A stretch of DNA of 52,691 nucleotides from a virus. Taxonomy: Duplodnaviria; Caudoviricetes. Both the position numbers and the translations under genes were made by a program. Below, piece after piece: positions 14,205 to 44,882 of the stretch; positions within the stretch are counted from its first letter, which is position 1, and every line of letters begins with the position of its first letter. The notes below the pieces were generated by a model. The model made no database searches. It had not been told where the DNA came from and saw nothing but the letters and a program-made list of their open reading frames with translations. The stretch is from positions 1-52,691 of IMG/VR virus record IMGVR_UViG_3300012920_000056, one strand, 5' to 3'.

Positions 14205-15175
14205 ATGAAAAAGTGGTGTGCAAAGAGTGCGGAAAAGAATTCGATTCAGAAAAGGCTTTGCATCGGCACATTAAAGTGCATAATATGGATTTAGCAGCTT
14301 ACTATACTAAATTTTATCCTAGAGTGAATAAACTAACACAAGAACTACTACCTTTCAAGGATAAACTATCTTATTTTAATACAGACTTCTCCACAAGAGC
14401 GCAAATGATCAAATGGTGCAATATAAATAAAGGTAATGAAGAAGTAAAAGAATATATACTTAAACAATTAAAACATAGAATAGATAATAAACAATTAAAG
14501 TATGCACCTAATCATTTAGAATTAAAAATAAATGATTTACCAAGTATAGATATATATAAAGATAATTTTGGCGGTTATGGACAAGCTTGCCAACAGCTTG
14601 GCCTAGAACCATTATATAATAAGGGAATAAAAGATGAAAAGATCTTTCTTTCTTTGAACAAAAAAATGGAAGAAATTCCTATCTTAATTGATACCCGCGA
14701 ACAAAAGCCTCTTTCTTTCGTTAATAGCAAAGAGCATAAATTAGACTTTGGAGACTATACAGTAGGGGGAGAGCGCTATAACTATACTTATGTTGACCGC
14801 AAGAGCGAAAACGATTTTAAGGGTACTCTAGGGACAGGATACAACCGTTTTAGAAACGAATTAAAAAGAGCACGACAGTTTAATTCTTTTTTATATATAG
14901 TTATTGAGCAATCTCTACCCCAATTAATAAAAAATAATAATTATTTAAAAAATAAAAGAATGAAAGGTGCTTCTAATTTAAAATTTATATTTCATAGGAT
15001 GAGATTGTTAACTCATGAATTTAGAAATCATTGCCAATTTATTTTTTCTGGCAGTCGCGAAAATTCTGAATTATTAATTCCTAATTTATTGTTTTGGGGA
15101 CAAAGATTATGGAATGTAGATATACAATATTATTTAGATAAATATGACTTGGACACCAGGAAAACAAAAAGCTAG
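14201..15175 (+). CDS. C2H2 zinc finger + ERCC4-type nuclease
   Basis: CKECG...LHRHIKVH; ILIDTREQ, LDFGDY, DRKSENDF. Confidence 0.8.
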   Translation: MNEKVVCKECGKEFDSEKALHRHIKVHNMDLAAYYTKFYPRVNKLTQELLPFKDKLSYFNTDFSTRAQMIKWCNINKGNEEVKEYILKQLKHRIDNKQLKYAPNHLELKINDLPSIDIYKDNFGGYGQACQQLGLEPLYNKGIKDEKIFLSLNKKMEEIPILIDTREQKPLSFVNSKEHKLDFGDYTVGGERYNYTYVDRKSENDFKGTLGTGYNRFRNELKRARQFNSFLYIVIEQSLPQLIKNNNYLKNKRMKGASNLKFIFHRMRLLTHEFRNHCQFIFSGSRENSELLIPNLLFWGQRLWNVDIQYYLDKYDLDTRKTKS

Positions 15176-27592: not shown

Positions 27593-28411
27593 ATGAGCGT
27601 TTATTATAAAAATTTAAAAACTATTGTAGACGGTCAAGTTTACTATGCTAATTCTGTTGATATGTCAGAAGGTGTTGAAATGCAAGATTTTGCCCCTATG
27701 GGAACCGCTAAAAGCTATAGCTTTCCAAGTAATAAACCAGAAGGCACAATGAACATGAATTTTTATGTTACTAGTTCTAGTGAAATATCAAAACTTCATG
27801 ATCAACTCGGTCAAACTGGTTTTATTAGTTTAAGTGTCGGGCCATTTTCAGCAAGCCACGCATTAGTAAATTCATTTTCTATACAAGGAGAGCCAAATAG
27901 TATTTTACAAGCTTCAGCATCTTTTACATATTACGGGCAAATGAGCAAGGGGTCAACTCCAACCCAAAGCAATAATACTATTGATCCTGCACATGGAGCA
28001 GCATCTACAGTCTCTTTATCAGATGTCGGAATGTCAGATGTAGTCAGCTTTGATTATTCATTTTCTCAATCATACGAAGTACAGTACAGCTTGGGTAGTA
28101 ATGAACCTTCCAAAGTAATTTTTAATGATGCCACAAAAGAAATGCAGTTGAGCGCTTTGATATCTGACGTCACTTTTTCAAAAACTAGTTTAACTGGGGC
28201 AAGCGAGTTGTGCAATGACGATTTAGACACCGAAGGCGTATATACCAGAGGTTTATCTATATCATTAAAAGATTTGTGTTCCAGTGTAATTGAGACATTA
28301 GAAATTGATGGATACCTAACGTCCAGAGATATAACTGCTGAACCTGGAGGAGAAGTTATTGAAACGGTTACTGTAGCAGAAAAATACGTGCCAAGCGGAG
28401 GTTGCCCATGA
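27593..28411 (+). CDS. tail-tube-like minor tail protein 2
   Basis: Paralogue of next gene (FSQSYE.Y.LG...P.K.[IV]FN). Confidence 0.6.
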   Translation: MSVYYKNLKTIVDGQVYYANSVDMSEGVEMQDFAPMGTAKSYSFPSNKPEGTMNMNFYVTSSSEISKLHDQLGQTGFISLSVGPFSASHALVNSFSIQGEPNSILQASASFTYYGQMSKGSTPTQSNNTIDPAHGAASTVSLSDVGMSDVVSFDYSFSQSYEVQYSLGSNEPSKVIFNDATKEMQLSALISDVTFSKTSLTGASELCNDDLDTEGVYTRGLSISLKDLCSSVIETLEIDGYLTSRDITAEPGGEVIETVTVAEKYVPSGGCP

Positions 28412-29187
28412 GTAGTTGTTATAAAAATTTTCCTATAATTGTAAATTACAGTGCTGGTTCTCCAGATAAAATTTTCTCTAACAGCGCTTCGCTATCCGAA
28501 AATTTAGATATTCAAAACGCAGAATCTCTTGGAGCAAAAGGCGCAAATACCGTTTTTACTAAAACTTTAACTCAAGGTGATCTTAGTGCAGAGTCTTATT
28601 TATATAATACAGATCTTTCTATATTTAATAATTTAAAAGGAGAAAATGATCAAGGGATTACTTTACAATTCGGTCCTTATACTTGTCCTGCTCCTTGTGT
28701 ATTATCTTCTTTATCTATTAATATAAGCCTAGGAGAGCCTATCACTGTTGATAGAAGCTTTAATTATTTTGGCGGAATTACGACTGCTGCAGCACCTACC
28801 CCGACTGTTCCTAATCTAGAGCCGATTATACCAGAAAATATATCTTTAAATGGTTTTGATTCATTGGGTAGTTTAAGTAACATACAATCAATATCATGGG
28901 AATTTTCACAATCATATGAAACATATTATTTATTGGGAAATGCAGTTCCCAAAATAGTATTTAATAATGGTCAAATAACAATGAATGTACAAGGAGAAGG
29001 AATATCCAATGCACTTACAGCTAGTAATTGTGCTGTTCCTGCAAGGACTTATTCTATTGATGTCTATGATTGTAACGGATCAAATGCTGGATCTTTGTCA
29101 ATCTTAGGTTATGCTCAAAGCAGAACTTCTTCTGTTTCTTCCGATAATGACGAACAAAACTCCGTATCTATTATACAATATTTATAA
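28408..29187 (+). CDS. tail-tube-like minor tail protein 3
   Basis: ORF track 28402; ATGA overlap favours 28408; paralogue of preceding gene. Confidence 0.6.
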   Translation: MSSCYKNFPIIVNYSAGSPDKIFSNSASLSENLDIQNAESLGAKGANTVFTKTLTQGDLSAESYLYNTDLSIFNNLKGENDQGITLQFGPYTCPAPCVLSSLSINISLGEPITVDRSFNYFGGITTAAAPTPTVPNLEPIIPENISLNGFDSLGSLSNIQSISWEFSQSYETYYLLGNAVPKIVFNNGQITMNVQGEGISNALTASNCAVPARTYSIDVYDCNGSNAGSLSILGYAQSRTSSVSSDNDEQNSVSIIQYL

Positions 29188-29525: not shown

Positions 29526-30509
29526 ATGGCAAAAGCAAAAAAACGTGAATTATACAGTTTCGATATTCAAATAGAAGAAGAAATCGAAAAAGAAGTAACA
29601 AAAGAAGTAGAACGCAAGAATGACAAAGGTGAAACTGAAACCATCAAGGAAGTTACAAAAGAAATAAGCAAGCAAGAAGTTCCTGTAAAGATTTTTTTAA
29701 AAAAGCCTACCCGAACTCAAGTTGAAGATGGAGACATGTTTTATAGCGTATGGCTTAATAAATATATTAAAATGGGATTATTGACACGAGCGATGCTCGC
29801 GAAAAAACAACTTGATATCGGGGGATCTCTTAACGAAGAAGATAAATTAAATTATGCCAAGCTATATTTAAAATTATTTGAAAAACAGCAGAATGTTATT
29901 CGATATAGCGCCATCGATTCTGCTGCAATGACAAATGACGAGCAGGAAAGGTTAGATAAATCAGTTTCTGATCTTTCTGTTATTCGTAAAGAACTTGCTG
30001 ACTTTGAAGCCGCACAAGCTTCGATTTTTGATCACACAGCTGACGTTAAAGCTCGTAACAAAACAATTACTTGGTTTTTATTGCATCTTGGATATTTTAT
30101 TAAAGGAGATGGTGATGATGATTCAGCATCCCCTTTGTTTCCAGGAACTGATTACGAAGAAAAATACGATAGCTATCAAGAACTAGACGAAGAGCAAGAT
30201 GAAATTTTTGTAAAAAGTATTGATCGGTTAAGTACGATAGCTACTATTTGGTACATGAGTGGCATTCAGGAGCAGCAAGAATTCGAAGATGTTTTAAAGC
30301 AAATGCAAAAACAAACTTCTATTGACACTAATATCGAAGAAGCTTTAAATGAAGCCAAGTCCGAAGCTAAGTCCGAAGCTAAGTCCGAGGCTAAAGACAA
30401 ACCAAAAACAGAAGCTAAAAAACCAGAGCCTAAAAAATCAGAGCCTGCTCCAAAAAAAGACGAAGCGCCTCAGCAAGATTCTGACGACAAAAAAGCTTCA
30501 GAAAGTTAA
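29526..30509 (+). CDS. putative tail assembly chaperone
   Basis: Position before tape measure; charged helical protein with EAKS x3 tail. Confidence 0.5.
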   Translation: MAKAKKRELYSFDIQIEEEIEKEVTKEVERKNDKGETETIKEVTKEISKQEVPVKIFLKKPTRTQVEDGDMFYSVWLNKYIKMGLLTRAMLAKKQLDIGGSLNEEDKLNYAKLYLKLFEKQQNVIRYSAIDSAAMTNDEQERLDKSVSDLSVIRKELADFEAAQASIFDHTADVKARNKTITWFLLHLGYFIKGDGDDDSASPLFPGTDYEEKYDSYQELDEEQDEIFVKSIDRLSTIATIWYMSGIQEQQEFEDVLKQMQKQTSIDTNIEEALNEAKSEAKSEAKSEAKDKPKTEAKKPEPKKSEPAPKKDEAPQQDSDDKKASES

Positions 30510-30527
30510 TTAAATTTAGGGGCTTTT

Positions 30528-31517
30528 ATGGCTAACCAGCCCCCAGAAGATTCGACATTAAGAAAAGTATTAACTGATGTCATACAAGGATATTCCTCTC
30601 TTGAGCATAAGGGAGAGTTAGCTTTTGTTAAACATTTTGGAAGCAAAGAGCAACAAGAGCTCGAAGTGCATTACGAAAATACATATAAAAAAGCTCAAGA
30701 TTATGGATTGCCTACAAAAAAAGAAGCACTGCAGTTTATAAAAGATGAAGGACTGTGGAGTGATGAAGAAGAAAACGAATTAAATTCCAACAAAAGTTAT
30801 TTAAAGAACCTAAAGGATACGAAAAAAAACCTCGTAATTCCTAGTCAAATAGTCGGCATCAAAAAAGATATTGAAGAAGTCGAAGAAAAAATTTTTACAG
30901 CGAAATCAAAAAGAAATTCATTAATAAGCGAGACCTGCGAGCGTTATGCTCAAAATAAAAGCAATGATTACAGTATTTATATATCTTTTTATAAAGATGA
31001 AAAATGTACTGAAAAACTTTTTAACGATAATGAATTTGATGAATTAACTAAGCAAGAAATCTCTGAATGGTTTAGCGCTTATTTAAATGTAACTGATCAT
31101 TTAAGTATTAATAATATTAAATATTTATCTATAAGTAATATATTTTCTATGTACTACAATTTATTAGGCGCAAATAATCTATATAAAATGATTGAAAAGC
31201 CTGTATATGATTTTTCTTTTTATCAGTTAAATTTATTGAATTATGCAAAGGTATTACATTCTATCATCGAAAATCATGAAAAAATACCTGAACATATTAA
31301 AAAAGATCCTGATGAATTATTGAATTACGCCGAAAGCGCAAGCAAAAATAAAAATATGGTTAACAAAAGCCGTGATAGGCAAGGTTATAGCGTAGTGGGA
31401 GCTTCGAATGAAGATATGAAGCAGATGGGGGTACAAGATGAAGCTTCTGTGAGCTTGCATGATTTAGCAAAAAAAGGTGGATCATTAACCATAAAAGATT
31501 TTCAAAAATTTAGTTAA
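30528..31517 (+). CDS. putative tail assembly chaperone 2
   Basis: Directly upstream of tape measure. Confidence 0.5.
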   Translation: MANQPPEDSTLRKVLTDVIQGYSSLEHKGELAFVKHFGSKEQQELEVHYENTYKKAQDYGLPTKKEALQFIKDEGLWSDEEENELNSNKSYLKNLKDTKKNLVIPSQIVGIKKDIEEVEEKIFTAKSKRNSLISETCERYAQNKSNDYSIYISFYKDEKCTEKLFNDNEFDELTKQEISEWFSAYLNVTDHLSINNIKYLSISNIFSMYYNLLGANNLYKMIEKPVYDFSFYQLNLLNYAKVLHSIIENHEKIPEHIKKDPDELLNYAESASKNKNMVNKSRDRQGYSVVGASNEDMKQMGVQDEASVSLHDLAKKGGSLTIKDFQKFS

Positions 31518-31544: not shown

Positions 31545-34500
31545 ATGGCTTTAGGTAGAGGAAATATAGAAATTGATATACGCGGTAACGTAGATACCGC
31601 AGGTATTGCGCGTCAGGTTACCGCAGCTGAAAAGCAGATTCGTCCTCTTAATATAAGTTTAAACGATAAAGGGTTTAGGCAGCCATTGGGTCGAATTAGT
31701 GGCGACATAGCTGAATTTCAAAAATCTTTAGATGCTTCCGTAGCTCGTACTCTGGCATTTGGTGCTGCAGTAGGCGTAATTAACGCAGTATCTGATGGCT
31801 TTAAATCTCTAGTGCAAAGTGCTGTAGAGGTAGAAAAAGCATTAACTGATATTAATGTAATTTTAAATTTAAACAGTGGTGGTCTGCAAAATTTTTCTGA
31901 TCAATTGTTTGATGTAGCAAAAAATACAGGTCAAAGTTTTCAAACTATAGCAGAAGCAGCCGTAGAGTTATCACGTCAAGGCTTAGGGGCGGAAGAAACG
32001 CTGTCAAGAATAAATGACGCCATGATTCTAACAAGGCTTTCTGGTATGGATGCTGCAAAATCAGTAGAAACACTGACTGCTGCCATTAATAGTTTTGGAG
32101 ATACCGCTTTGACTACGACTAGCCTAGTAAATAAGCTGGCTAGTGTTGATGCTGCTTTTGCCGTAAGCACCGAAGATTTAGCCAATGCGCTTGCTAGATC
32201 TGGAGCTAGCGCTCAAGCTGCTAAAGTTGATCTTAATGAATTATTGGCTGCTGTCACTAGTGTTCAGCAAATAACTGCTCGTGGCGGTTCTGTTATTGGT
32301 AATGCTTTTAAAAGTATTTTTACAAGGCTTCAAAGATCAGGAGTTAGAGAAGCTTTAGAAGAAATTGGTGTCGCAACTACAGACGCCGCAGGAAATATTA
32401 GAGGAGCGCTAGATATTTTACAAGATTATGCAACTGTATATGGCACTTTAACAGACTCCCAAAGAGCTTATACAGATGAATTAGTCGCAGGAGTATTTCA
32501 AATCAATAATTTGCGAGCTTTAGTAAAAGATTTAGGTAGTGACTACAGTATTTACCAAAGAGCTTTAGAGGAATCAAATGGCGCAACTGATCAAGCTGTA
32601 CGTAGGAATGAAAAACTACAAAAAACATTATCTTCTTTAATTAATGAATCAGCAGCAAACGCAAAAGAATTAGCTTCTTCGCTCGGCGAACTTATAGCTA
32701 CCCCTGGGCTAGAAAATTTATTAGAAATTTTTAATTCAATAGCTGGTGCATTACGAGAATCTCTAGATCCAGAACAAGGATTTAGTTTAATAAGAACTAT
32801 GTTTGATTCTATAGGAAGGTTTATATCTGGCCCTGGGCTTGTTATCATAGGAGCTGCTTTTATTAAATTATTTAAATTTATTACCCAGCAAAGTTTAAAA
32901 GCAGTACAAGAAGTTTTTAAAATTGGTAGTGCAGCAAATAAAGTTGCTGACGCAGAAGCAAAGATTGGCTTTTTATTAAAAAATAATCGTACATTATACG
33001 AAGCTATTAGTAACGAAGCTTTGACACACGAGCAGCGCGAAGAGTTAGTTTTGCAAACCATTAAACAACAAAATAGAGCTTATGAGCAGCAACAAGCTTT
33101 GATATCCAGGCTAGCAAAAGCTAGGACTGTACAATCAGCAGTAAATGTAACTTCTAAAGCGCAAGGGTTTATCCCTAGAGCGTCAAAAGGTTATATGCCA
33201 CATTTTGCAGAAGGAACTGATTTTTCTCCAAATAAATTGCGTAAAGGAAAAGAAAAAGCAAAAGCTAGCGGTTTCATACCAAATTTTTCTAGCGAAATTG
33301 AAGGCGCTATTCATGCTGAAAAGAGCGCTATATCTGCTGGAGTAGGAGGGGCATCAAAAAGCGCAAAGCCAAAAGTATTAAAGAATTTTCCAATGGGCGG
33401 TGGTAAGCGACAAACTATCGTTGCAAATACTGACGAAGTTATTGTTCCACGTTTTGGTGGTGGAACAGGTTCAGCAATATTTAATCAAGAAATGATTAAA
33501 AAAGCAGGCATGCCAGGTGATGCAATACCAGTGTCCAATGGATATATTCCAAATTATGCTCAGTCTAAGCTACAAACAGATAAAGTTTTTCAAGATTTAT
33601 TAAGTGATTTTCAAGGTGTTGATGTTGATGTGCAGAGAGATATGTCTGGATTCGGCATGTTAACCGCAAAAGGAAAACGAGGAAACTTGGAAACTACCAG
33701 AAAGCCAGGGTTTTCAAGAGAAGACAAACTAAAAATTATCGACAGCATTGGTGGCTCTAAATTAAACAAAGATGATAAAAGTTTTTTACTGACAACAATC
33801 GGCGGAAAAAAGAAAACTAGATTTTCAAATATACCAGCGCAAACTATAGAATCTGCAGATCCAGAAAAAATTAGCGGAAAAGTAGGCGCATTAAACAATT
33901 TAATTAATCCGCATATAGCTGATGCAGTTGCAGAAGTGGCAACAAATATATATACTCGAGTATTAGGCGATGAAGTAAGCGCTCAAAATTTAGTTAAAAA
34001 CGTTCGTGCTTCAGCTAATGCTGATCAAGGAATAGTTTCTAAAGGAGCTCAAGGAGCTATTTTTGAATCTGCTATACGGCTTGGTTCTAAAGAGTCAGCT
34101 AAAAATCTAGCCAAAGATGATAAAGATGCTATTTGGGATTTTGAAGAATCAAGCGCAATGAGTGCAGATTTAAAAGCTCTGTTCTTTCCTACTTCTAATA
34201 TTTATAAAGCAGACGCAAAAAGAACTGGAGATCAAAATAATTTAAGGGAAGTTGTTGATAAAGCATATAAAGCTGATTTCTCAGATCAACTGCGAGAAAT
34301 TTACGCCCGCAATTGGTCCCCTATTGTTAGTGCTGCAGCTAAAGTGGCTCCATCAAAACAAAAAACAGAAAGAAAAAGGACGGGCACAAATTTAGCGGGC
34401 GGTTTTATTCCTAATTTTATTACTAGCATTCCTGATGATGCAATAAGACCTTTTCAGGCTTCAAAAGATTTTTTCATACCCCCAAAAGAAAACGACAGTA

Positions 34501-37500
34501 TTAAAACGGAAAAAGTAAGCGTACTTGAGCCAGGAGAAGCTCGCCTTGGCAAGGGAAAAGCTGGCGGGCAAAGAGCAGATGGGAGGGATGTATTTCAAGC
34601 GCTAATTGATATTGAATATGATAGAAGAAATATCGAAGAATTTGAGAAAATATCAAATCCAATTGCAAATAAATTAATTGATGGAAATGTCGAGTGGTTA
34701 AACAAAATAGAAAAAACTTCCTCTAAATTAATTGATAGAAATTTAGCTGATCCATCAAATATACAAGGTATACAAACTCAAGTTAGTAATTTGCAATTAA
34801 TAAAAAAAGCTAAATCAAAAGGAATCAAAGCTCAAGATATAGTTGCAGGAAAAAGCGCAAAAGGAACCGCAAAGCAAAAAAAATATTGGGAAAAATACCA
34901 AACAACCATAAAAAACGGGAAATTTAAAGACCAAAAATTTATGGAAAAAGGAATCCGAGATAAAGTTAAAGGTGCCATAGGGGAGTATGCAGCAGCAATA
35001 AAAGAAGGCACGACAGTTAATACTAAAAATTCTTATTTTGACTTAGTAAATGGTAAAGAAGTCAAGACAAAGAGAACGACTCCTGCTTCAAATTTACTCA
35101 AGAAAGGTGCTAATGAATACTTAAAAACTCTTTCTGAAAAAAATAATCTTTTTAACCAAAGAACTGACAACAAGAAGCTGAATAAAATTACTGTGATTAT
35201 GCCGAGAGACGGTAGCGTTAATTTTCAAGCGGCAGATGGATTCATACCAAATTTCTTTGGTGATAAAATTGGCTGGAAAATTGATAAAGCCAAAGGTGAC
35301 TATGCTATTACAGGAAGCAATTCTAAGCTAAGCGGTTTCAGTAGTTACCTCAAAGAAGTGTCTGAAAAAGATTCGAAAATAGTTAGCCCAAGGGCTGCAG
35401 AAATGTTTGAAAAACGAGTCAAAGAAGTTAACGCACAACATTTAAAAGATAAAGAAGAAACTTCAAGAAGATCGCCTATCGGTTTTGGTAGGCAAGGAGC
35501 AAAACATTATGCAGCGATGGATGCTGTATCCAGAAGAGAGCGAAGCGTTAGTACAAAAGGATTATTTATCAAAGATCTTGGCAAGCATGTCAAGCAGTAT
35601 AATAAACATGATATTTTCGCAGTAGATAAGTTTGGCTCGTATGATTCTTTTTTTGGTGAAGGTTATATTCCAAATTTAATTAATAGACCATTAACTACTA
35701 AAGAACCAACTCAACCAAGAAAACTAGACCTTCACTGGATTAGCTCAGTTGAAAGTAGTGGAACATCAGAATTAAGAAGAATATACAAAGATATAGAACA
35801 ATCCGCAAAAGTAGGAAAACCCTATACTCAAATTGATGCTGGATTTGTAGTTGGACCTAGAATACCAAAAATCTTAGTAGAAGGCCACAAGCTTTTAAAT
35901 AAAAGTAGAGCTAGCGGAAAAAACATTCCAAAAATGAAGCTGAATGGAGTGATGACTCCAGGTGACATAACCAAGTATATTTATCGGAATAAAGAAAAGT
36001 TAGCCGCTGGTGATAAATTCACTACAAAGGCAGATTACATGCCAGGAGAAGAAAAAGAGGTTGAGAAATACCTCAAAATCATGGGCTTGAATCCATCATC
36101 TTTCAATAGCGTAGATTTAGATGAAATACAAATGTTTAGAAATGGATTTGCTGGAGGTTTTATACCTAATTTTGCAAACCAAGTATATGATAAAGATAAA
36201 ATTCAACCACAAGAAGCTGGAGAAATTTTACAAAATATTTTATCCAACAAAAAAAAGAAAGATTTACTTATTGGACCGTCTGGAGTTGGTAAGTCAACCT
36301 TAGCTGCAAAATATGGTGAGTTTATAAAAAGCATTGAAGATGCTAAGGAGGCTAGCTCTTATACAATATTATCTGGAGCAGGAAAAACAAAAGCTGGTGG
36401 AATGTCTCCAGCATTATTAAAAATTATTGAGGCTGTTAATGGTTCTGGCGGCAAAGTATCTTACCTTTCTGCGGATGATAAAACCATAGAGGAAAGAAGA
36501 GAAAAAAGAATTTCTAAACCGCTTAAAGGTGATCTACGTTCCGAAGGCCAATTAAAAGGCACACGATTCGCGCCTAAGAATCAACCTGATTTTGCAAATG
36601 TAGTTAAAAGAGCTGCTAATAGATTCGAAATTATTAATGCAGCTCAAGGTGTTATTCCAAATTTTGCACTTAGTAATTCTATGATAGAAGGTTTGCGCGC
36701 AAAGCTTCGTCCAGGCAGTGGAGCTACAGAAGCAGAAAAAAAGAACGCAAGAAAGATACTAGACAAAGAAGAGCGCTCAACATCATTTATTAAAGATGCA
36801 GCAATAATTGATGACCTTCAGTTCTCTAAAAAACAAGTACAGGGAGCGATAGCAGATGTTACTGAAAAAAGAAATTCACTTAATCTTGATTCACAGCCAA
36901 TTGCTATTGAACAAAAAGATATAACAAAATTCGCAGAAGAATATATTAAAAAAGTAAACAGAGCAAAACGCGCTTTTACTAACGAAAAGTTATTTGGTAC
37001 TCCTTTAAGCACGAGCGAAATCAGCATGGCCTTAAAAGGTCAAGGTGGATATCAAAGAGGCAAATACATACCAAAACATTTTAAAAACATGGCTGACGGA
37101 TATATTCCAAATTTTGCCAATTTTGTTCCTAATTATGTTATGCCGCAAAGAGATTTTGCAAAATTTAGCGTAGCTATAGCTAGGTTTAATAGAAAAAATT
37201 TAATAACACCGCCATTAAAAGCGTTAGATTCAAGAGAGTTAATAAAAATTCCAAAACGGAATCCAGAAGTAGCTAGAGAAACGGTTGAAAATGTTAGACA
37301 ATTCATTAGTTCTGATGAATACCGAGCTTTAGATCCAGGAATCCAAAAAGAAGTTCAAAAGCACTATAATAAAATTGCCATTAGAACTGGAGTTAGTGAT
37401 GCAAGTCGTCCATTTACTCGACATTCAGATCCAAATTTTGAAGGCAGAATTGCTGCCGCTAAAGGCCTGATTCCTAATTTTGCTAATGAATTACAAGAAG

Positions 37501-40500
37501 CTATAGTCAGAGAAGAACAAGCTTTAAAAGATCAAGGTTCAAGCGCTAAAGTATATGTTGATCAAGATAATAGATTAAAAGATCGTAAAAATCCAATGGG
37601 CCTATTAGTTGCGAATCGTAGAGATGAACCAGGCGGTGGATTTCAAGGAGTTAATCGAGCAATGTCTATGGGAATGAATCCAAAGGTGCATGGAATGGCA
37701 AGTGGGTACATACCTAATTATGTAGCAGGAGGAGCGATTCAGTCAACTAATTTTGATTCAAGTGGTTTTAAAAAACTTACAGAGCAAACACAAAAAGCCG
37801 CCAATCAAGCAAAAATCGGAGCTGACAAGATCAGAGATCTCGGAAAAGCTGCTGGAGATACAGGTGAAGCAAGTGATAATAGTATGGGCAGATTACTCGC
37901 CTTTTCAATAGGGCTTTCTACAATAGAGTCTACCTTAGCGCAAGTTGGAGGACCAGCGTTTGAAAATTTTTCATTACAGGCTACTCAAGCTAGCATTGCT
38001 GTTGCCGAGTTAGGCGGAAATTTAACACAAGCTCTATCAAAACAGCTGGGATCTTTGGGGCAAACACTATCATCTAAAAAAGGACTTGGCGGAGTGGGTG
38101 GTTTACTTGGTGGTCTTGGAAAGACTGTTGGTAGATTAGTCCCAGTAATTGGACCTTTAAGTGTAGCAGGTGGTTTACTTTATGACGCCTACGAAAATGG
38201 TGCATTTAAAACGCTTGGCTTATATAATAAGCAAAAGGAATTGATTAAATCAACCACTCAATATACAAAAACGCTGGAAGAACAACAAAACAAACAAGCT
38301 CAAAGTATAGAAAAAGTAGATAAATTTTCTGTAGTCCTTTCAAAGCTTGGCAAAGCCGCGCAAGAGGGAAATATAGATGCTTATGGAAAATTTTTACAAG
38401 AGCTAACTGAACAAGCTGGAGAGCTAGACAATATTGATCCAACCGCATTCCGCGAATTGCTTAATAGCGCAGGAGATGCTAAAAAACTTAATGAAGCGAC
38501 ACAAGCATTAAAAGACTTAATTAACCAAGGAAGTCAACTAACAAACTTTCAAAAAGATTTTGCAGATTTAACTAAGGAAATTGCTGAAGCTGACGGAGAC
38601 TTAGATAAAGTTAACGCTGGCAAAAAAATACAAGAAATTGGGAAAACATTAGTTAGTGGTTTAAATCTTGATCAAATGAAACAATTAGTGGGGGGGCTTG
38701 CTGATTTTGATGGTAGTTCTCAAGATTCCGCTAATACTCTCCTCAAGTTACAAAGTGTGTTTGGTAATTTAGATAGTGAAACAAAAAGCTATATTAGACA
38801 AAACGAAGGGCTGAGTAAATCATTGCTTTTATCTGTTAAATCACAAGCTGGTTATAAAGTTGCGGCAGATAATTTAACCCAAGCATATATTAAAGCCCGA
38901 AGTCCAGTTCAAAATTTAAATGCAGAATTTTCAAAATTAGCTCTTGCCATTGATAATTCAATTAAGAATATAAGAGCTTCATTTAGTACTTTATCAGAAG
39001 TTGGGAAAATAGAGGCAGAATCTAGAACAAAAACATTAGAAGCAACTTCAGTAGTAACTCCACAGGCTTCAGCTCAAGGGCAAGCTATTGCTGATCTTGC
39101 AAGAGCTCAGCAAGAAGCTTCGCAAGATATTAAAACATCATTGCAGTCCTTTGCTTCGGAAACTATTAAAAGCGCAGAAAAAAATAGTCAAGTACTAAAA
39201 GGTCCAATTAAAACCTTAGTTGACGGGATAAAGTCTGGCGATGTTAATTTAAATGCTGCAATATCATCTTTACGAGAAATTCAACAAACTGGCAATGCCG
39301 AACAAAAAGATTCTGCAACAAAAGCTCTTGATACAATTCGTGGAGCTAATCAAGAATTCATAAGTTCTCAAAAAGTAATCGATGCTACTTTGAGAGCTCA
39401 ATTGCAAGAATCGGCAATTCAGAGCGCTATATTCAGAAGAGAAAATCAATTAAGCGAAGGCCAACTAAAAACACTAATTGAATTTAATAACGCTTCAAAA
39501 ACAAATCTAGAAAGATTATCAGGCTTAAAAGAGTCTATTGATTTAGTTCGCGAACTAGGCGGAAATGAAGATATTTTAGCAGAACTAAAAGCAGGTAATC
39601 GTCAACGGTCAGAATTAGAAAACCTAGAAGCTGCATTTTCTAAATTTACTGGGCAAGCTTTTGACGCAATCAATTTAGATGATCTAGAAAGTCAAGTAGA
39701 TAGTTTCATTGCTTCTGATCGATTTTCTGAATTAGACACTAAGACCCAGAGCTTGGTGGCTGCATTGACTGGCGCTTTTGATAAAATTAATAAATTTGAA
39801 TTACAAGATAAAGGAGTATCTTCTGCCGAAGATGTTGGGGCAGCTAAAACCATTAGCACACCAGATGAAGCTATTAAATCTTTAGCAACTGAATTTGAAA
39901 CATTTTCTCAAACATTAGCAACAGGTTTAAAATTAGATCCTGAATCTATCAAATCATTATCTTCAACAGAAAGCATTCAATCTATCGCAGAAAGTATTAA
40001 GTCAACATCTGAAACAAATCAACAAAATCTAGCTAAAAACGCTGAATTGCAAAAAGCGCAAACTGAAGCCTTAATAACTGCTGCATCTAAAATAGATAGT
40101 AGCGGCAGCAAGTTAGATAGTGCTGCAGGTGCCTTACTTGAGGCTGCAAAAACAATTAGAGCTACCTCAGGCACTTCCGCTTCTGGTTTTGTACCTAGTT
40201 TTTCGGCTAATTCTCAAGCTGTCACGCGAGCAATAACAACAGAAAGAAACCTGGGAGGAAAGCCTGTCGTCGATTATAATTCTGCAGTAGGAACTTATGT
40301 AAGAGATGGAAATACTCAACCTAATTTTGCTGCTGTAAAAAGAGATCATCCAGAAGGCTTAAAAAGAGCTGCTGAAAATTCAAAGACCTTGCAGGGTATG
40401 GCTGCATCTCGAGGTTTTGTTCCAAATTTCTTTGGTAGTGCTGCTGGAGTAGATTTTACTGGAACAGGTGGTAATTTCAATCAATCATTTGAGCCCACAA

Positions 40501-43500
40501 GAGAACAAATAATTGCAGGCAACTCACAAGAAGCGCGAGAAGCTTTAGAAGAAAAAGGTTATCAAGCCGCTATTAGCGCAGCAATCATTGGAAACACTGG
40601 AGCTTTTGATAAATCTTTATTTTTAGGTTCCGCAATGAGATTACCTTTTGATAGAAAGCCGTGGAGGAAAATTTTAAATACCAATGAATACGCCAAAAAG
40701 TTTTACAATTCTGTTTATAATGCTGAACAGCCTAGTTTTAGCGGGGCTGATAAAATTTATACAGAATCCACAAAACAATCTTTCGAAAATTTACAAAAAA
40801 GCTTTTTTGAATCAATGGAGAAAGAATCAAAATTGGGGAATCTATGGGATGTTGTTCTAGAAAATAAAACTACCGCGAGAAAAGAATTTAAAAAATATTT
40901 TAATCAAAACAAAAAACTATTTACCAGCTTTGATTTATCAAAAGATGCTTATGACAAAAATGTATATCAAACAATGTCTCCATTGTATAATCTTCGGGAT
41001 CAAATCAATAATGCATATCTTCATAATGCTATTGGTACAGTCGCAGGGCCACTTGATAAAGTTCCACGGTTAAAATCTGGACTGGAAAATCCATATAGTT
41101 TTAAAATACCAGTAACAAATGGCGCTTCATTAGCTTATGTACCAGCCGTGACAAGTCTTTATAAACAAAATTTTGTTTCAACGGGAGATTATTCAAGAGT
41201 GCCAGGTTTCGCAAAACATGTTTTACTTAAAAATGTAGCAGATAAAATACAAGATATTCATTACCGTGATGATTTAGTTCTTCCATATGATATAAAATAT
41301 AATTTAAAAAATGAGCAAGGAGAAACTATATCTCCTACAGCCTTTTTAGATATAGACGTAACACAAGGGCGAAAAAATACTTCAAGTATCCGCGACCAAC
41401 AAAATAAAATTACTGAATTAGATACTTTAGAAAGGGTCATACAAAATAAAATTTCTGCTAACGATCAATACATAGAAAAGAAAAAGGGTGATCTATACAT
41501 GCTTAAAAATCCATTAATTGATCCTGATTCAGGCTTAATGCCAGTAGTCACGCCACCAGATCAAATTAAAAAATTAGAAAGCCATATAAAAGATGTTCAG
41601 GATCAAAAAACGATTTTCCAATCGCAAATTAGTAAACATAAATTAGCAAAAGAATATATACAAAAAAATCTAGAGTACGCGCATAAATACAAAAACATAC
41701 CTAACGAACAATTTGCAACCAATCCTATATATTTAAATGATAGCGGTAAGGAGCAAAAACTCAAAAGCTGGTCTTCGAGTAAAAAAAATAGTTCGATCAA
41801 TAATTTATCTACATGGTTTCATGGCCTGAAACTTACTACTTTAAAAGAAAATAATTTTAAATCTTTAATTAGCGGATTTAAAGAAAATGTCTTTAACACA
41901 GAATTTAATAAAAATAATTCTGAAGCGAAAAAATTTATAGAGACTGCATATAATACAGTATTACCTACCGCACTTAAAAATCTTTCACTAACCCCAAAAG
42001 AAGATTACAGCCAAGCTGTACAAAACACTATCGATGAGATTAAGAATTATAAATTAAAATCTCCTGTAATGGTAGAAGAATTAAAATCTGCAAAAACTGA
42101 AAGACAGAAAAAAACTATCGAAAAAGATGCAGCAAGCAGCGCAAAAAGTCAATTAGAGTCTGACACTGCTATTGCAGAATCATATTCAGAAGATTTATTT
42201 CCTCAAACTTTCGCAGAATCTTTAAAAGAAACTGAGACAATAATACAAGGTCAAGAAAAATCAAGTGATCTTTTAGATCTATTTCATAATGCAATATTAG
42301 GGAGATCCGCAGAATCTGAATATGCAGCTGCTAATGCAAACATTGGCGAAATTGCTGAAAGATTTGCAAGGCAAAAGTCGATGGCAGAACAGGCGACATC
42401 AAACAAGAAAGCTTTTATAGAAAATCAAATCAAAGGTAGAAAAAACGTACTGCCAAGATATGAAAAATTCGCAGGCAATAGAACAACACCTCAGCAAAAA
42501 AAATCTGCAGAACGAGCTGAAATTTTGAAAAGAGAAATTAGAGCTATCGAAAAACATGCGGAAATTTATGACAATAGTGATGCAATAAAGTATATAATGT
42601 TTGAGGATATGCGTAGTCCATTATTAATGGATGGTAAGCCTATATATCCTATGATTCCTACTGCCCCAGATGATTATGCTGAAAGATTCGAGAAGTATGA
42701 AAAAATATTTGAACGCTATCAAAAATATAAAGATAGCGGTAGCTTCTTAAAATTAAATCCAAACAATCAATTTGCAAATCAGCCATGGTCGGAAGATTAC
42801 GCTAGGATTCATACGGGAACGTTTTTAGATCAATTCTCTCAACAGAATTATGATCAAAGAGTTGAAACCTTAAAAAGATTAGGTGCTGATATAAAACTAA
42901 GAAATTCAGACACAAATCCGTTTTTTCAACTAACCCAAGAACAAGGTCGTAACGACTTTTTAGCAAACCTTAAAAATTCAGCCACAACTCTCCCTGAAAA
43001 ATATCTGTATGACAGAATAGGATTTTTAGTAGCCAATGAGTGGGTGGGTGATGTGGCTAAATTTGGAGTAACTGAAAAATTAAGCCCTACATTTAAAAAA
43101 CTTCAAACAATCGGCATGCCACTTTTACCTAATGCGGAAACAAATTATATACCACAAATAAAATTAATATCCGCAGAAAGAATAGATGGAGGTCCTGGAA
43201 CTCAAGAATATTCTGGGCCAGTGGTATCAGAACTTCTAACGCGGGAAGTAATGACTGAAGCAGCAAAATTACAACAAGCAGCATTTTACGAAAAAAATAA
43301 GAAATTTTATGAAGACGCAGGTATTAAATTACTTCCTGAAATGCTGGCTGGTAAAAAAATTGAATTTAATAAATATCCTCAATATTTAGACTGGCTAGCT
43401 GAAAAGTCTGGTTCTGGATTTAAAGTTAGTTCATTTGTTAATCAAATGCTAAACGATACAGAAAGCGTCGCAAATTTTGATTCCTGGAGAAACAAATATG

Positions 43501-44882
43501 TTAGTGATGATTTTACTTCTGATAAGTCAACTGTAAAAAGACTTTCATTATATGATGAGTATGGAGCAATTCGTACAAGCGATCCCGTGTTGCAAAAAAA
43601 TGAAGTAGTGAAAAGATTTTTTCAAGCCGAGGAGATTAATCCATTTGCATTTATTGATGGCGATAACACTACTCCATTTGGTGCATTAAAATTTGCAATG
43701 GGAGATCAGTTAAAGCATGGCAAGAATGTAAATTTTGAAGAGAATTTAAGAGATACAAGTGATCCATTAGCAGCCCTTAATATACCAAAAATAGAAAGTG
43801 TATCTGTATCTGCTGGCAGATTCATTAATAATGCATATGACGAAGCTGGAAATATTAAAAATATTTATGCTCCATTTGGATACACAAAAGAACACGCCGT
43901 TGATTCTCCTGTAGGTGCCGCAGCTAGTGATCCTGATATTGTCACAAGATTAGAAGAAGCTTTAAAGGCATATAAAACACAAACAACAAATGAAGGAAAC
44001 GTTAACGCTCGTGGATTTGTTCCAAATTTCTCTGCTGTAGCTGGAGAGATTATCGCTTCCAAAGCTGCAGGATACAATACCCCAGTCACATCTTCTCAAG
44101 TAAAAACTATGAGTATTCCTGGAGTTGGCAAGACGGCTTATAATACTCAGGAATCAGTTTTTAAATTACCAGGCATGACTCAACCTTTTATTGCGCCACC
44201 GAGCGACTCCGATGCAGCTAAACCATATAAACAGGAAGTACAAAAGAAATTTAATTTCAACCCTTATCAAAAAACTGCTGCTGATGGATTTATTCCTAAT
44301 TTTGCCAGGGGTATGGATTTTACTGATTTTGAATCTGCAGTCTCAGCATTCAGAACTGTTACGAATGGATTTGGCAAGCATATATCTTCTTTTGGAAAAG
44401 TTATTAGCAGTTTAGATTTTAAACAGTTTGCCACTGCATCAAGTGAAATTCAACAAGCAGCAAAAACATTTTCAGCACAATCAGATAACTTTAAACAAGC
44501 GGCAGAAAAAATTAGAAGTAGCGCAGATAAATTCAGCAGTCAATCAGCTCAAGCTCCTGAAATAAATCTTGGCGGATTAAATAGCGCAGTTGCTAAATTT
44601 AGTGGGGGTATCACGCGCTTATCAAATAAACTGGATAAAAAATTACAAGTTGATGCGGGATCAATTAATACTGCATTAGACAAATTAACAACTGCATTAG
44701 GAAAAATACAGGGTAGCATTCAAGTAAAAGTACCTGATGTCAATGTTAATGTACAAGGAAATGTATCTAGCGCTGTTAGCTCGGCAATAAAATCAGAAAT
44801 ACCTACCGCTGTCAAAAACGCTTTGGATAGTGCAAATATAGAAGGCTTAGTGCAAGATAAAATAAGAGAATTCATGCAATAA
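31545..44882 (+). CDS. giant modular tail tape measure protein (4445 aa) with repeated GFIPNF linkers and cargo domains
   Basis: N-terminal TP901-type tape-measure domain (LFDVAKNTGQSF...ELSRQG...GNAFKSIFTRL), TM-like segments, 16 GFIPNF-type motifs. Confidence 0.9.
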   Translation: MALGRGNIEIDIRGNVDTAGIARQVTAAEKQIRPLNISLNDKGFRQPLGRISGDIAEFQKSLDASVARTLAFGAAVGVINAVSDGFKSLVQSAVEVEKALTDINVILNLNSGGLQNFSDQLFDVAKNTGQSFQTIAEAAVELSRQGLGAEETLSRINDAMILTRLSGMDAAKSVETLTAAINSFGDTALTTTSLVNKLASVDAAFAVSTEDLANALARSGASAQAAKVDLNELLAAVTSVQQITARGGSVIGNAFKSIFTRLQRSGVREALEEIGVATTDAAGNIRGALDILQDYATVYGTLTDSQRAYTDELVAGVFQINNLRALVKDLGSDYSIYQRALEESNGATDQAVRRNEKLQKTLSSLINESAANAKELASSLGELIATPGLENLLEIFNSIAGALRESLDPEQGFSLIRTMFDSIGRFISGPGLVIIGAAFIKLFKFITQQSLKAVQEVFKIGSAANKVADAEAKIGFLLKNNRTLYEAISNEALTHEQREELVLQTIKQQNRAYEQQQALISRLAKARTVQSAVNVTSKAQGFIPRASKGYMPHFAEGTDFSPNKLRKGKEKAKASGFIPNFSSEIEGAIHAEKSAISAGVGGASKSAKPKVLKNFPMGGGKRQTIVANTDEVIVPRFGGGTGSAIFNQEMIKKAGMPGDAIPVSNGYIPNYAQSKLQTDKVFQDLLSDFQGVDVDVQRDMSGFGMLTAKGKRGNLETTRKPGFSREDKLKIIDSIGGSKLNKDDKSFLLTTIGGKKKTRFSNIPAQTIESADPEKISGKVGALNNLINPHIADAVAEVATNIYTRVLGDEVSAQNLVKNVRASANADQGIVSKGAQGAIFESAIRLGSKESAKNLAKDDKDAIWDFEESSAMSADLKALFFPTSNIYKADAKRTGDQNNLREVVDKAYKADFSDQLREIYARNWSPIVSAAAKVAPSKQKTERKRTGTNLAGGFIPNFITSIPDDAIRPFQASKDFFIPPKENDSIKTEKVSVLEPGEARLGKGKAGGQRADGRDVFQALIDIEYDRRNIEEFEKISNPIANKLIDGNVEWLNKIEKTSSKLIDRNLADPSNIQGIQTQVSNLQLIKKAKSKGIKAQDIVAGKSAKGTAKQKKYWEKYQTTIKNGKFKDQKFMEKGIRDKVKGAIGEYAAAIKEGTTVNTKNSYFDLVNGKEVKTKRTTPASNLLKKGANEYLKTLSEKNNLFNQRTDNKKLNKITVIMPRDGSVNFQAADGFIPNFFGDKIGWKIDKAKGDYAITGSNSKLSGFSSYLKEVSEKDSKIVSPRAAEMFEKRVKEVNAQHLKDKEETSRRSPIGFGRQGAKHYAAMDAVSRRERSVSTKGLFIKDLGKHVKQYNKHDIFAVDKFGSYDSFFGEGYIPNLINRPLTTKEPTQPRKLDLHWISSVESSGTSELRRIYKDIEQSAKVGKPYTQIDAGFVVGPRIPKILVEGHKLLNKSRASGKNIPKMKLNGVMTPGDITKYIYRNKEKLAAGDKFTTKADYMPGEEKEVEKYLKIMGLNPSSFNSVDLDEIQMFRNGFAGGFIPNFANQVYDKDKIQPQEAGEILQNILSNKKKKDLLIGPSGVGKSTLAAKYGEFIKSIEDAKEASSYTILSGAGKTKAGGMSPALLKIIEAVNGSGGKVSYLSADDKTIEERREKRISKPLKGDLRSEGQLKGTRFAPKNQPDFANVVKRAANRFEIINAAQGVIPNFALSNSMIEGLRAKLRPGSGATEAEKKNARKILDKEERSTSFIKDAAIIDDLQFSKKQVQGAIADVTEKRNSLNLDSQPIAIEQKDITKFAEEYIKKVNRAKRAFTNEKLFGTPLSTSEISMALKGQGGYQRGKYIPKHFKNMADGYIPNFANFVPNYVMPQRDFAKFSVAIARFNRKNLITPPLKALDSRELIKIPKRNPEVARETVENVRQFISSDEYRALDPGIQKEVQKHYNKIAIRTGVSDASRPFTRHSDPNFEGRIAAAKGLIPNFANELQEAIVREEQALKDQGSSAKVYVDQDNRLKDRKNPMGLLVANRRDEPGGGFQGVNRAMSMGMNPKVHGMASGYIPNYVAGGAIQSTNFDSSGFKKLTEQTQKAANQAKIGADKIRDLGKAAGDTGEASDNSMGRLLAFSIGLSTIESTLAQVGGPAFENFSLQATQASIAVAELGGNLTQALSKQLGSLGQTLSSKKGLGGVGGLLGGLGKTVGRLVPVIGPLSVAGGLLYDAYENGAFKTLGLYNKQKELIKSTTQYTKTLEEQQNKQAQSIEKVDKFSVVLSKLGKAAQEGNIDAYGKFLQELTEQAGELDNIDPTAFRELLNSAGDAKKLNEATQALKDLINQGSQLTNFQKDFADLTKEIAEADGDLDKVNAGKKIQEIGKTLVSGLNLDQMKQLVGGLADFDGSSQDSANTLLKLQSVFGNLDSETKSYIRQNEGLSKSLLLSVKSQAGYKVAADNLTQAYIKARSPVQNLNAEFSKLALAIDNSIKNIRASFSTLSEVGKIEAESRTKTLEATSVVTPQASAQGQAIADLARAQQEASQDIKTSLQSFASETIKSAEKNSQVLKGPIKTLVDGIKSGDVNLNAAISSLREIQQTGNAEQKDSATKALDTIRGANQEFISSQKVIDATLRAQLQESAIQSAIFRRENQLSEGQLKTLIEFNNASKTNLERLSGLKESIDLVRELGGNEDILAELKAGNRQRSELENLEAAFSKFTGQAFDAINLDDLESQVDSFIASDRFSELDTKTQSLVAALTGAFDKINKFELQDKGVSSAEDVGAAKTISTPDEAIKSLATEFETFSQTLATGLKLDPESIKSLSSTESIQSIAESIKSTSETNQQNLAKNAELQKAQTEALITAASKIDSSGSKLDSAAGALLEAAKTIRATSGTSASGFVPSFSANSQAVTRAITTERNLGGKPVVDYNSAVGTYVRDGNTQPNFAAVKRDHPEGLKRAAENSKTLQGMAASRGFVPNFFGSAAGVDFTGTGGNFNQSFEPTREQIIAGNSQEAREALEEKGYQAAISAAIIGNTGAFDKSLFLGSAMRLPFDRKPWRKILNTNEYAKKFYNSVYNAEQPSFSGADKIYTESTKQSFENLQKSFFESMEKESKLGNLWDVVLENKTTARKEFKKYFNQNKKLFTSFDLSKDAYDKNVYQTMSPLYNLRDQINNAYLHNAIGTVAGPLDKVPRLKSGLENPYSFKIPVTNGASLAYVPAVTSLYKQNFVSTGDYSRVPGFAKHVLLKNVADKIQDIHYRDDLVLPYDIKYNLKNEQGETISPTAFLDIDVTQGRKNTSSIRDQQNKITELDTLERVIQNKISANDQYIEKKKGDLYMLKNPLIDPDSGLMPVVTPPDQIKKLESHIKDVQDQKTIFQSQISKHKLAKEYIQKNLEYAHKYKNIPNEQFATNPIYLNDSGKEQKLKSWSSSKKNSSINNLSTWFHGLKLTTLKENNFKSLISGFKENVFNTEFNKNNSEAKKFIETAYNTVLPTALKNLSLTPKEDYSQAVQNTIDEIKNYKLKSPVMVEELKSAKTERQKKTIEKDAASSAKSQLESDTAIAESYSEDLFPQTFAESLKETETIIQGQEKSSDLLDLFHNAILGRSAESEYAAANANIGEIAERFARQKSMAEQATSNKKAFIENQIKGRKNVLPRYEKFAGNRTTPQQKKSAERAEILKREIRAIEKHAEIYDNSDAIKYIMFEDMRSPLLMDGKPIYPMIPTAPDDYAERFEKYEKIFERYQKYKDSGSFLKLNPNNQFANQPWSEDYARIHTGTFLDQFSQQNYDQRVETLKRLGADIKLRNSDTNPFFQLTQEQGRNDFLANLKNSATTLPEKYLYDRIGFLVANEWVGDVAKFGVTEKLSPTFKKLQTIGMPLLPNAETNYIPQIKLISAERIDGGPGTQEYSGPVVSELLTREVMTEAAKLQQAAFYEKNKKFYEDAGIKLLPEMLAGKKIEFNKYPQYLDWLAEKSGSGFKVSSFVNQMLNDTESVANFDSWRNKYVSDDFTSDKSTVKRLSLYDEYGAIRTSDPVLQKNEVVKRFFQAEEINPFAFIDGDNTTPFGALKFAMGDQLKHGKNVNFEENLRDTSDPLAALNIPKIESVSVSAGRFINNAYDEAGNIKNIYAPFGYTKEHAVDSPVGAAASDPDIVTRLEEALKAYKTQTTNEGNVNARGFVPNFSAVAGEIIASKAAGYNTPVTSSQVKTMSIPGVGKTAYNTQESVFKLPGMTQPFIAPPSDSDAAKPYKQEVQKKFNFNPYQKTAADGFIPNFARGMDFTDFESAVSAFRTVTNGFGKHISSFGKVISSLDFKQFATASSEIQQAAKTFSAQSDNFKQAAEKIRSSADKFSSQSAQAPEINLGGLNSAVAKFSGGITRLSNKLDKKLQVDAGSINTALDKLTTALGKIQGSIQVKVPDVNVNVQGNVSSAVSSAIKSEIPTAVKNALDSANIEGLVQDKIREFMQ

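Follow-up and report, generated by a model that had tools for sequence, protein, structure and literature searches.

The viral contig IMGVR_UViG_3300012920_000056 of IMG/VR, which is the sole contig of its record and was analysed over its whole length of 52.7 kb (52,691 nt; hereafter the window), carries on its plus strand, at positions 31545–44882, an uninterrupted frame of 4445 amino acids whose product is a TP901-family tape measure protein (TMP) of an uncultured aquatic tailed phage. We propose that this is probably a modular and exchangeable TMP, in which a conserved skeleton carries an array of cassettes that is reshuffled at a junction peptide acting at the level of the protein. Every module junction of the TMP carries the same near-invariant ten-residue peptide in a flexible linker, and relatives differ from one another by whole modules, with their breakpoints at this peptide. 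An earlier reading of the window from its letters alone (the original prediction) had described a TP901-type N-terminus followed by cargo blocks delimited by GFIPNF-type linkers. Its first element holds well: TIGR01760 matches amino acids 81–405 with 137.1 bits (cut-off 28.8) and PF10145 amino acids 123–308 with 99.1 bits (cut-off 33.2), and the N-terminal core (amino acids 1–540; 31545–33164, plus strand) also matches 18 PHROG tape-measure families. As these family models are passed far above their cut-offs and the gene lies among tail genes, in the order tube paralogues, two conserved genes, TMP and then four open reading frames (ORFs) of 522–735 amino acids, the protein is assigned to the TP901 family. 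Hydrophobic segments are present at amino acids 61–83, 422–451 and 2194–2213.

Sixteen copies of the motif had been listed in the TMP, and all 16 glycine codons named do encode the peptides ascribed to them. Thirteen copies match the strict pattern G[FYVL][IV]PN[FYL], and the degenerate ones are GFIPR at 33165, GYMPHF at 33189 and GFVPSF at 40185; 2000 shuffled versions of the TMP sequence contained the strict pattern a mean of 0.002 times, and no version more than once. A 17th match to a loose pattern, GLMPVV at amino acid 3330, looks like chance. In a six-frame scan of the window with a slightly looser pattern, all 15 matches fell in the TMP frame, and a degenerate DNA pattern gave ten matches in the window and ten in one complete 194.5-kb relative genome, each of them inside the TMP gene, with no match for the reversed DNA pattern used as a control. 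These data clearly show that the junction peptide is confined to the TMP.

To define the family, a profile of short motif-bounded blocks (alignment A1) was searched against 1.84 billion cluster representatives, the clusters being defined at 50% identity, and 924 representatives were recovered at E≤1e-3 and 405 at E≤1e-10. The best 150 family proteins are nearly all 1500–4800 amino acids long with two to nine matched stretches each, and the largest relative has 6251 amino acids. At least two strict copies of the motif occur in 147 of 151 family proteins. From 828 copies the family consensus AAxGF(I/V)PNFA was derived, with successive positions occupied by A (41%), A (64%), any residue, G (100%), F/Y (86%), I/V (96%), P (100%), N (95%), F (85%) and A (65%). 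The distances between motifs peak at 60–100 amino acids and spread over 100–340 amino acids, with 47 of 680 exceeding 500.

One explanation is that the motif serves mainly as a DNA-level signal for a recombinase or for homologous exchange, the peptide itself being functionless. Breakpoints do fall at the motif, and copies in the window share up to, and at most, 16 identical bases; yet the 16 copies differ freely at their synonymous positions (GGT/GGA/GGG/GGC, TTT/TTC, ATT/ATA/ATC and CCA/CCT), the 18-base motif core has a mean identity of 77% among them, and the glycine and proline are kept in every one of the 828 copies even though the N-terminal cores of the family are only about 42% identical (median) to that of the window. 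Such codon variation, with the peptide kept across cores so diverged, indicates that selection acts on the peptide. Given the variation in codons between copies, we consider a pure DNA recombination signal unlikely, and a motif whose role lies mainly in its DNA is highly improbable. The residual DNA likeness of the copies may nevertheless ease in-frame exchange as a by-product. The earlier suggestion of a recombination joint is weakened as regards a DNA-level signal by the varied codons and the limit of 16 shared bases.

The organization of the TMP was derived by block-by-block blastp of the window and three other lineages from IMG/VR. The motif joins four kinds of module: the N-terminal core, which is 76–84% identical among the four lineages; mini-domains of 70–90 amino acids, of four types; long blocks; and cassettes of 120–520 amino acids. 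The common skeleton consists of the core, a mini-domain, a block of 287–303 amino acids (b2 in the window), a variable array, a mini-domain, a long block of 770–900 amino acids, a mini-domain, a second long block of 1200–1250 amino acids, a mini-domain and a C-terminal block of approximately 200 amino acids.

In the window, all modules being on the plus strand, the core is followed by the two degenerate copies GFIPR and GYMPHF (33165–33206) and then by a motif with a type A mini-domain (b1, 90 amino acids, 33270–33539), which is 70–77% identical across lineages. Seven motif-headed cassettes come next. The first is the core cassette b2 (287 amino acids, 33540–34400) of block family 3, with homologues in 29 of 80 related loci; family 3 is related to families 4 and 35 (hhalign probabilities of 97 and 92%). 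It is followed by b3 (279 amino acids, family 18, 34401–35237), for which blastp found homologues in two of the 80 fetched loci, both of the window's own lineage, and in 11 of 172 family proteins, and by b4 (141 amino acids, family 26, 35238–35660), b5 (165 amino acids, family 12, 35661–36155, headed by GYIPNL), which is common to two other lineages in another context, and b6 (164 amino acids, family 8, 36156–36647), a P-loop kinase-like block. The last two are b7 (150 amino acids, 36648–37097, headed by GVIPNF), which formed a singleton family when 130 TMPs were clustered and was matched by blastp in five of 172 family proteins, and b8 (122 amino acids, family 27, 37098–37463). That the seven blocks between 33540 and 37464 are mutually unrelated, as had been claimed, was borne out: their lengths of 287, 279, 141, 165, 164, 150 and 122 amino acids go with no blastp similarity, and in profile–profile comparisons of 252 family pairs no pair among the window's seven families exceeded 5% probability. 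A common core of b2 and b3 was considered and rejected, with no hhalign signal between families 3 and 18.

The array is closed by a motif with a type B mini-domain (b9, 80 amino acids, family 1, 37464–37703). A motif with the long block b10 follows (827 amino acids, 37704–40184), which is rich in alanine, glutamate, lysine, leucine and glutamine and contains the hydrophobic, glycine-rich segment at 2194–2213; then the degenerate GFVPSF with a type C mini-domain (b11, 76 amino acids, 40185–40412); a motif with the long block b12 (1200 amino acids, 40413–44012), which is aromatic-rich, has no family match and is 23% identical to its counterpart in the nearest relative; a motif with a type D mini-domain (b13, 91 amino acids, 44013–44285), recovered by blastp across lineages; and the last motif with the C-terminal block b14 (198 amino acids, 44286–44879). 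The long blocks are probably helical rulers.

The four mini-domains b1, b9, b11 and b13 (76–91 amino acids) are each bounded by two motif copies and sit at the borders between the major sections of the TMP. They are weakly related to one another and remain 55–82% identical between lineages even where their flanks are at 23–46%, as exemplified by b13, which is 82% identical to the nearest relative between flanks of 23 and 46%. The type B mini-domain is a hallmark of the family, being present in 167 of 172 proteins, and no match to it was found in Pfam, NCBIfam or the PDB. In 34 diverse sequences (alignment A5) it shows invariant R, E, NPxG, N, DEP and QG residues, and invariant polar residues of this kind are unusual for a mere spacer.

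The exchange of cassettes was examined by clustering 895 blocks from 130 TMPs, which gave 247 families, 57 of them mini-domain-sized, 125 cassette-sized and 65 long. Among the cassette-sized families, 38 of the 125 have more than one member. TMPs of this set in which the core is present have between one and seven cassettes each, and 290 of 313 cassette blocks precede the first long block. Cassette families generally occur in close to one neighbour context per member, family 3 having 26 contexts for its 33 members. Of 24 cassette pairs found together in at least three proteins, five were seen in both orders, and reordering is also evident from the successions 4-8-15, 8-4-15 and 4-15-8 of families in three proteins, from 3-18 in the window against 18-3 in relative P0013, and from family 27 (that of b8), which precedes family 18 in relative P0006 and follows it in the window. 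Five of the window's cassettes (b3, b4, b6, b7 and b8) are missing from the two more distant of the four compared lineages, whereas b5 is present there in other contexts, and one relative has an extra block of 431 amino acids between a mini-domain and a long block. The comparison of relatives that the original prediction had suggested (by blastp, clustering and contigs) thus found modules gained, lost, replaced and reordered at the motif. The cassette families keep to narrow lengths (151–168, 173–175 and 187–193 amino acids) whereas one long-block family ranges from 1148 to 1823 amino acids, which fits folded domains on the one hand and rulers on the other.

The position of the breakpoints was assessed in three ways. 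Among high-scoring segment pairs of at least 120 amino acids between TMPs, 4566 of 18633 starts and 12119 of 25070 ends lay at a motif, compared with 1147 of 28253 random points. When the window was compared with its nearest relative, identity changed most strongly at amino acids 2059, 2964, 4157, 972 and 525, adjoining the motifs at 2054, 2957, 4157, 953 and 541 respectively; shifts across these points were from 86 to 28%, from 68 to 20% and from 38 to 82%, the first of these at motif 2054, the border of b10. In addition, contigs of other metagenomes were aligned to the TMP gene at 85% likeness, with interpretation confined to the parts under contig cover and the exclusion of joints with short sides (31940 to 44286, 32371 to 40323 and 33377 to 41227). 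In a contig of run X13, position 37121 is linked to 37521 through 33 substitute bases, so that precisely the 122 codons of b8 are missing, in frame, and a motif and then a mini-domain follow. A second contig diverges at 35260/35657, at the borders of b4, and a third diverges exactly at 34401, its upstream part encoding the end of a type D mini-domain. Breaks in homology, jumps in identity and contig joints fall at the motif, and its role in delimiting modules is supported. In contigs of several runs we also observed a back-joint from 41462 to 39951, across roughly 28 other bases, and common loose ends at 41559 and 41593 inside b12, which hints at a variable or rearranged segment in related phages. 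The nearest relative (L009, G001) has two motif copies 17 amino acids apart at 1835–1852 in place of one in the window; this looks like the remnant left by the loss of a block, or like a recent duplication.

The modules were also examined by structure prediction with AlphaFold2 (AF2). For b6, with 12 sequences, a compact α/β domain was predicted with a predicted local distance difference test score (pLDDT) of 86.6 and a predicted TM-score of 0.82, with both flanking motifs below 50. A model of amino acids 530–966, with 40 sequences, had a mean pLDDT of 53; there, the β part of mini-domain b1 alone reached 75–82, b2 was helical at 50–69, and all three motifs were below 50. In these models the motif is accordingly placed in low-confidence, apparently flexible linkers between the modules. 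The alignment of the 12 b6 sequences shows G43, G45, K46, T48, R115 and R118 to be invariant, corresponding to a Walker A loop and lid arginines, and there are invariant arginine and aspartate residues besides the Walker A loop. The best fold matches of the b6 model are all P-loop kinases, namely zeta toxin (Z 7.8, root-mean-square deviation 3.7 over 138 residues), polynucleotide kinase (Z 7.7, 3.6 over 117 residues) and adenylate, uridylate, guanylate and dephospho-CoA kinases (Z 6–7). The matches are modest throughout (Z 6–7.8, deviations of 3.6–4.9 over 105–138 residues, Foldseek TM 0.3–0.43). A profile of b6 also matched P-loop proteins in the PDB, including the nucleotide-binding domains of ClpB/ClpC (E 3e-4 to 1e-3), and among proteins of 85–273 amino acids its only stand-alone homologue was one fragment of 89 residues. 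From the model, b6 appears to be a confidently folded P-loop kinase-like domain and not a ruler helix.

The original prediction had spoken of several blocks with enzyme signatures, which was an overstatement: in the window the Walker A loop of b6 (36156–36647) is the one such signature. Its further point, that the blocks are unlike ruler helix, applies at least to b6, which folds confidently as an enzyme-like domain in the model; b2 was modelled as helices with low confidence. A reading of b2 as a PD-(D/E)xK nuclease was tried, given a conserved E...D...DxK-like pattern (alignment A3), and was dropped as a claim, there being no sheet in the low-confidence AF2 model and no result from a profile search of the PDB. 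Searches of the ESM Atlas gave no usable match for b2, and for b5 scores of 0.84–0.86, below a meaningful level. Further enzyme-like domains were found in relatives by Pfam scans of 39 distinct proteins. An SNase domain (27.1 bits against a cut-off of 21) lies inside a motif-bracketed block of 202 amino acids in relative P0158, and borderline SNase, GNAT and ABC1-kinase-like matches each fall within a motif-bracketed block of 168–201 amino acids. A phage lysozyme domain (67 bits) and a glycine zipper were each found in a long block past the last motif.

These results bear on a purely structural explanation, according to which the blocks are spacer or ruler segments and envelope-penetration domains of a very long but ordinary TMP, the motif forms a neck at which the three chains come back into register or make contact with the tube, and there is no effector in the host. 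Most blocks are indeed without an enzyme signature, b2 is modelled as helices, the lysozyme domain of the relative, a classical TMP accessory, lies in a long C-terminal block, and the mini-domains sit exactly at the borders of major sections. In addition, a phage tail of nearly 1 μm is on record in the available part of one report (PMC10034513), so that the argument from tail length, by which a plain ruler of this length would imply a tail of over 600 nm, is weak. Against this explanation stand the compact α/β P-loop kinase-like model of b6, whose conserved Walker A loop and arginines have no obvious structural role, the SNase cassette of P0158, the high turnover and reordering of cassettes, which is more like an arms-race repertoire than a ruler, and the poor conservation of the tube proteins beside an invariant motif. 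On balance we regard a purely structural TMP as rather unlikely, if the most credible of the alternatives.

Several points weigh against an exchangeable TMP as we propose it. Part of the enrichment of segment-pair breakpoints is to be expected, both from the motif being the most conserved anchor and from the slower evolution of mini-domains relative to rulers. Identity jumps alone are no proof of recombination. The four mini-domains and b2 are conserved core parts and not exchangeable, and the skeleton of b2, mini-domain and ruler is collinear in most relatives, so that only part of the TMP is truly exchangeable. In 60 of 80 further loci the core is followed by a mini-domain and then by one block of 220–345 amino acids, with mostly a second mini-domain and a ruler next, and the first mini-domain of related loci is a homologue of the window's last one (type D, b13) in 63 of the 80; the start shared by the 60 loci indicates that the skeleton is conserved and that the window's lineage has an expanded array. 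For five of the seven window cassettes no family or fold was detected in the profile libraries, and the low-confidence, mostly helical model of b2 suggests that some cassettes may be ruler-like or only conditionally folded. By our own estimate, three copies of folded domains of 150–290 amino acids would fit the lumen of a tube of approximately 4 nm badly. Finally, no partner of the motif was identified, and no motif-free members were found in the family, three loci that seemed to lack the motif proving to be artefacts of ORF selection or to have degenerate copies, which leaves no contrast group for the co-occurrence of neighbouring genes.

With these reservations, a modular and exchangeable TMP is the reading that we prefer. 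The chain would consist of the TP901-type core, the cassette array (seven in the window) and long rulers with hydrophobic segments, with mini-domains at the section borders. As one and the same stretch, coding in frame for the peptide, flanks each module on both sides, an exchange between any two copies would leave the TMP intact, and the lineage could thus reshuffle a pool of at least 125 cassette families. As stretches of the TMP, the cassettes would lie in the tail lumen, exit the particle together with the rest of the protein when the phage infects and act on or in the host, and some of them would be enzymes, such as the P-loop kinase-like domain in the window and the SNase domain in a relative. 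The peptide itself would be a short linear handle read by one conserved partner. We give first preference to the products of the two upstream genes in the tail-assembly-chaperone position, which might hold the non-helical cassettes during tail assembly, a tentative assignment that falls somewhat short of even odds. Second comes a cutting site for a protease or for self-cleavage, which is improbable on present evidence, and third, and a little more doubtful still, a role in contacts between TMP chains. For such contacts, a trimer prediction with three type B mini-domains and both motifs (alignment A5) gave a score of 0.00 against a mark of 0.42, which is evidence neither way.

A cutting site would make the TMP a true polyprotein, in which the motif is proteolytic or autoproteolytic, for example at the conserved asparagine or at the small residues before the glycine, with cutting after tail assembly or ejection and release of the cassettes as separate proteins in the host. 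The processing of TMPs is known in λ and T5, a strongly conserved site of seven to ten residues is found in predicted disordered linkers at every module border, and the asparagine is kept in 95% of the 828 copies; processing by an embedded peptidase has also been proposed, in the accessible part of the source, for injected multi-domain ‘polyvalent’ proteins (PMC5512222). However, family scans found no protease domain in the TMP or neighbouring genes, Pfam found no peptidase in the window TMP or the 39 distinct relatives, and no other protein of the complete relative genome uses the motif. Moreover, cuts around the mini-domains would free peptides of 70–90 amino acids without an obvious role, and the residue after the conserved phenylalanine is mostly alanine (65%) and not a nucleophile. 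A polyprotein of this kind therefore seems unlikely to us. A bolder form of it, which we hold to be more doubtful again, is that the tail lumen is a programmable delivery cartridge, the TMP being resolved at the peptide, as a cutting or hand-off site, into up to seven separate enzymes acting in the host. These would be kinase-like, nuclease, acetyltransferase-like and other enzymes, a repertoire re-dealt between phages by in-frame exchange at the peptide.

The amino acid composition of the TMP is also unusual. There is no cysteine in its 4445 residues, compared with 0.89% in 12 other ORFs of the window, and 116 of 130 family TMPs have none, with 21 cysteines in 376,298 residues overall. Such avoidance fits a protein that passes a narrow channel or works outside the cytoplasm.

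With TP901-1-type TMPs the window protein shares the N-terminal 540 amino acids that fit TIGR01760/PF10145, the hydrophobic segments and the position of its gene after the tube and before large distal tail genes. It differs in being three to five times the typical length and in adding approximately 1400 amino acids of non-ruler cassettes, four mini-domain types and the junction peptide. TMPs with embedded enzyme motifs are known from mycobacteriophages (Rpf-like or peptidase) and from T5 pb2 (a C-terminal muralytic domain). As in these, enzyme-like domains are inserted in the TMP, presumably for delivery to the cell envelope at infection, and one relative here has a phage lysozyme domain. However, enzyme-bearing TMPs carry one or two fixed cell-wall domains, whereas the present TMPs have as many as seven cassettes each, drawn from at least 125 families, variable in both number and order and bracketed by one conserved peptide, and the folds that can be recognized are kinase-like and nuclease ones, not cell-wall enzymes.

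Polyvalent proteins, which occur in phages and conjugative elements, are giant shuffled mosaics for which entry into the host alongside the DNA and processing into units have been suggested (Iyer et al. 2017, PMC5512222, as far as the available text goes). They share with the TMP the presence of many unrelated domains in one giant phage protein, with architectures shuffled among relatives, but are thought, in that text, to travel in the head and not as a tail ruler. The available part of the paper contains no occurrence of ‘tape measure’ and mentions no universal junction peptide, and Pfam revealed neither its hallmark processing peptidase nor its effector families here, the paper's own profiles lying outside the search. 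Viral polyproteins resemble the TMP in having a conserved short site at every junction between functional units. The Sle1-type effectors of actinobacterial contractile injection systems have a TMP-related scaffold with an exchangeable functional domain; the scaffold is packed in a tail-like tube and ejected, and its function changes when the domain is replaced (Nagakubo et al. 2026, PMC13277306, accessible part). That system belongs to bacterial contractile injection machinery, has one C-terminal domain and, in the part of the report available, no repeated junction motif, whereas the present case is an array in a phage. Our literature search, with supplements and subscription journals outside its coverage, gave no description of a conserved junction peptide organizing shuffled cassettes in a phage TMP, and no paper was found in which the motif string occurs together with ‘tape measure protein’.

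TMPs are usually seen as rulers with an occasional cell-wall enzyme, whereas here a whole family of aquatic phages makes the ruler a modular carrier, in which one connector serves throughout and the pool of cassettes is large and turns over fast, which is relevant both to phage structure and to the search for injected phage proteins. Should the cassettes be active in host cells, they would constitute an unexplored store of phage proteins delivered by injection, perhaps enzymes of counter-defence or takeover, and if the TMP were indeed resolved into separate enzymes, this would be a tail-borne effector polyprotein system, undescribed for tailed phages in the literature searched. Even if the cassettes are only structural, the family offers an unusually clear natural case of in-frame domain shuffling via a conserved linker, and the connector suggests a natural design rule for chimeric TMPs carrying chosen domains.

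The sources of the relatives include entries named ‘TP901 family phage tail tape measure protein’ and an ocean-survey scaffold. Among the matches listed, DNA nearly identical to the window was found in 20 sequencing runs from up to ten studies, one of which is perhaps the window's own source; the habitat labels are marine, seawater, aquatic, freshwater, estuary and vent, with one run unlabelled. In cultured phages, the N-terminal core matches TMPs of Bacillus, Staphylococcus and Listeria phages at less than 30% identity. No match outside the core was found in the cultured phage records, a set from which entries very near the window may have been missing, and tblastn of amino acids 1852–2964 and of a mini-domain against 50,697 of these records gave none. 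A host search of 185,579 species genomes produced a single match, on a 7-kb contig binned with an uncultured Flavobacterium, which is too weak for naming a host. In one related locus (L037, protein from locus base 9896) the TMP frame ends after 1012 amino acids, just past the fourth motif; the gene may be split or frameshifted here, or the sequence may be in error.

Upstream of the TMP gene, two tail tube paralogues (27593–29187, plus strand) match PF18906 with 31.6 and 22.2 bits against a cut-off of 27; the genes, 27593–28411 and 28402–29187, are adjacent and overlap. They are detectable in eight and five of the 80 related loci, whereas the flanking tail genes are kept in 65–76. Directly 5′ of the TMP lie the two genes in the tail-assembly-chaperone position (29526–31517, plus strand), encoding 327 and 329 amino acids and regarded here as candidate partners only. 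Each of them (29526–30509 and 30528–31517) is kept in 76 of the 80 loci, and family searches with both gave no match. In these genes we saw no sign of the usual G/GT arrangement, an overlapping pair linked by a frameshift. Both share one reading frame with the TMP gene (31545–44882), and they are parted from each other by a TAA stop and an 18-base spacer with a ribosome-binding-like AGGGG. No tRNA genes were found in the window. Elsewhere it carries a PhoH-like gene (10712–11419; PHROG 170, E 2e-60), a gene for a protein with an ERCC4-type nuclease domain (14201–15175) and the large terminase gene (15144–17015).

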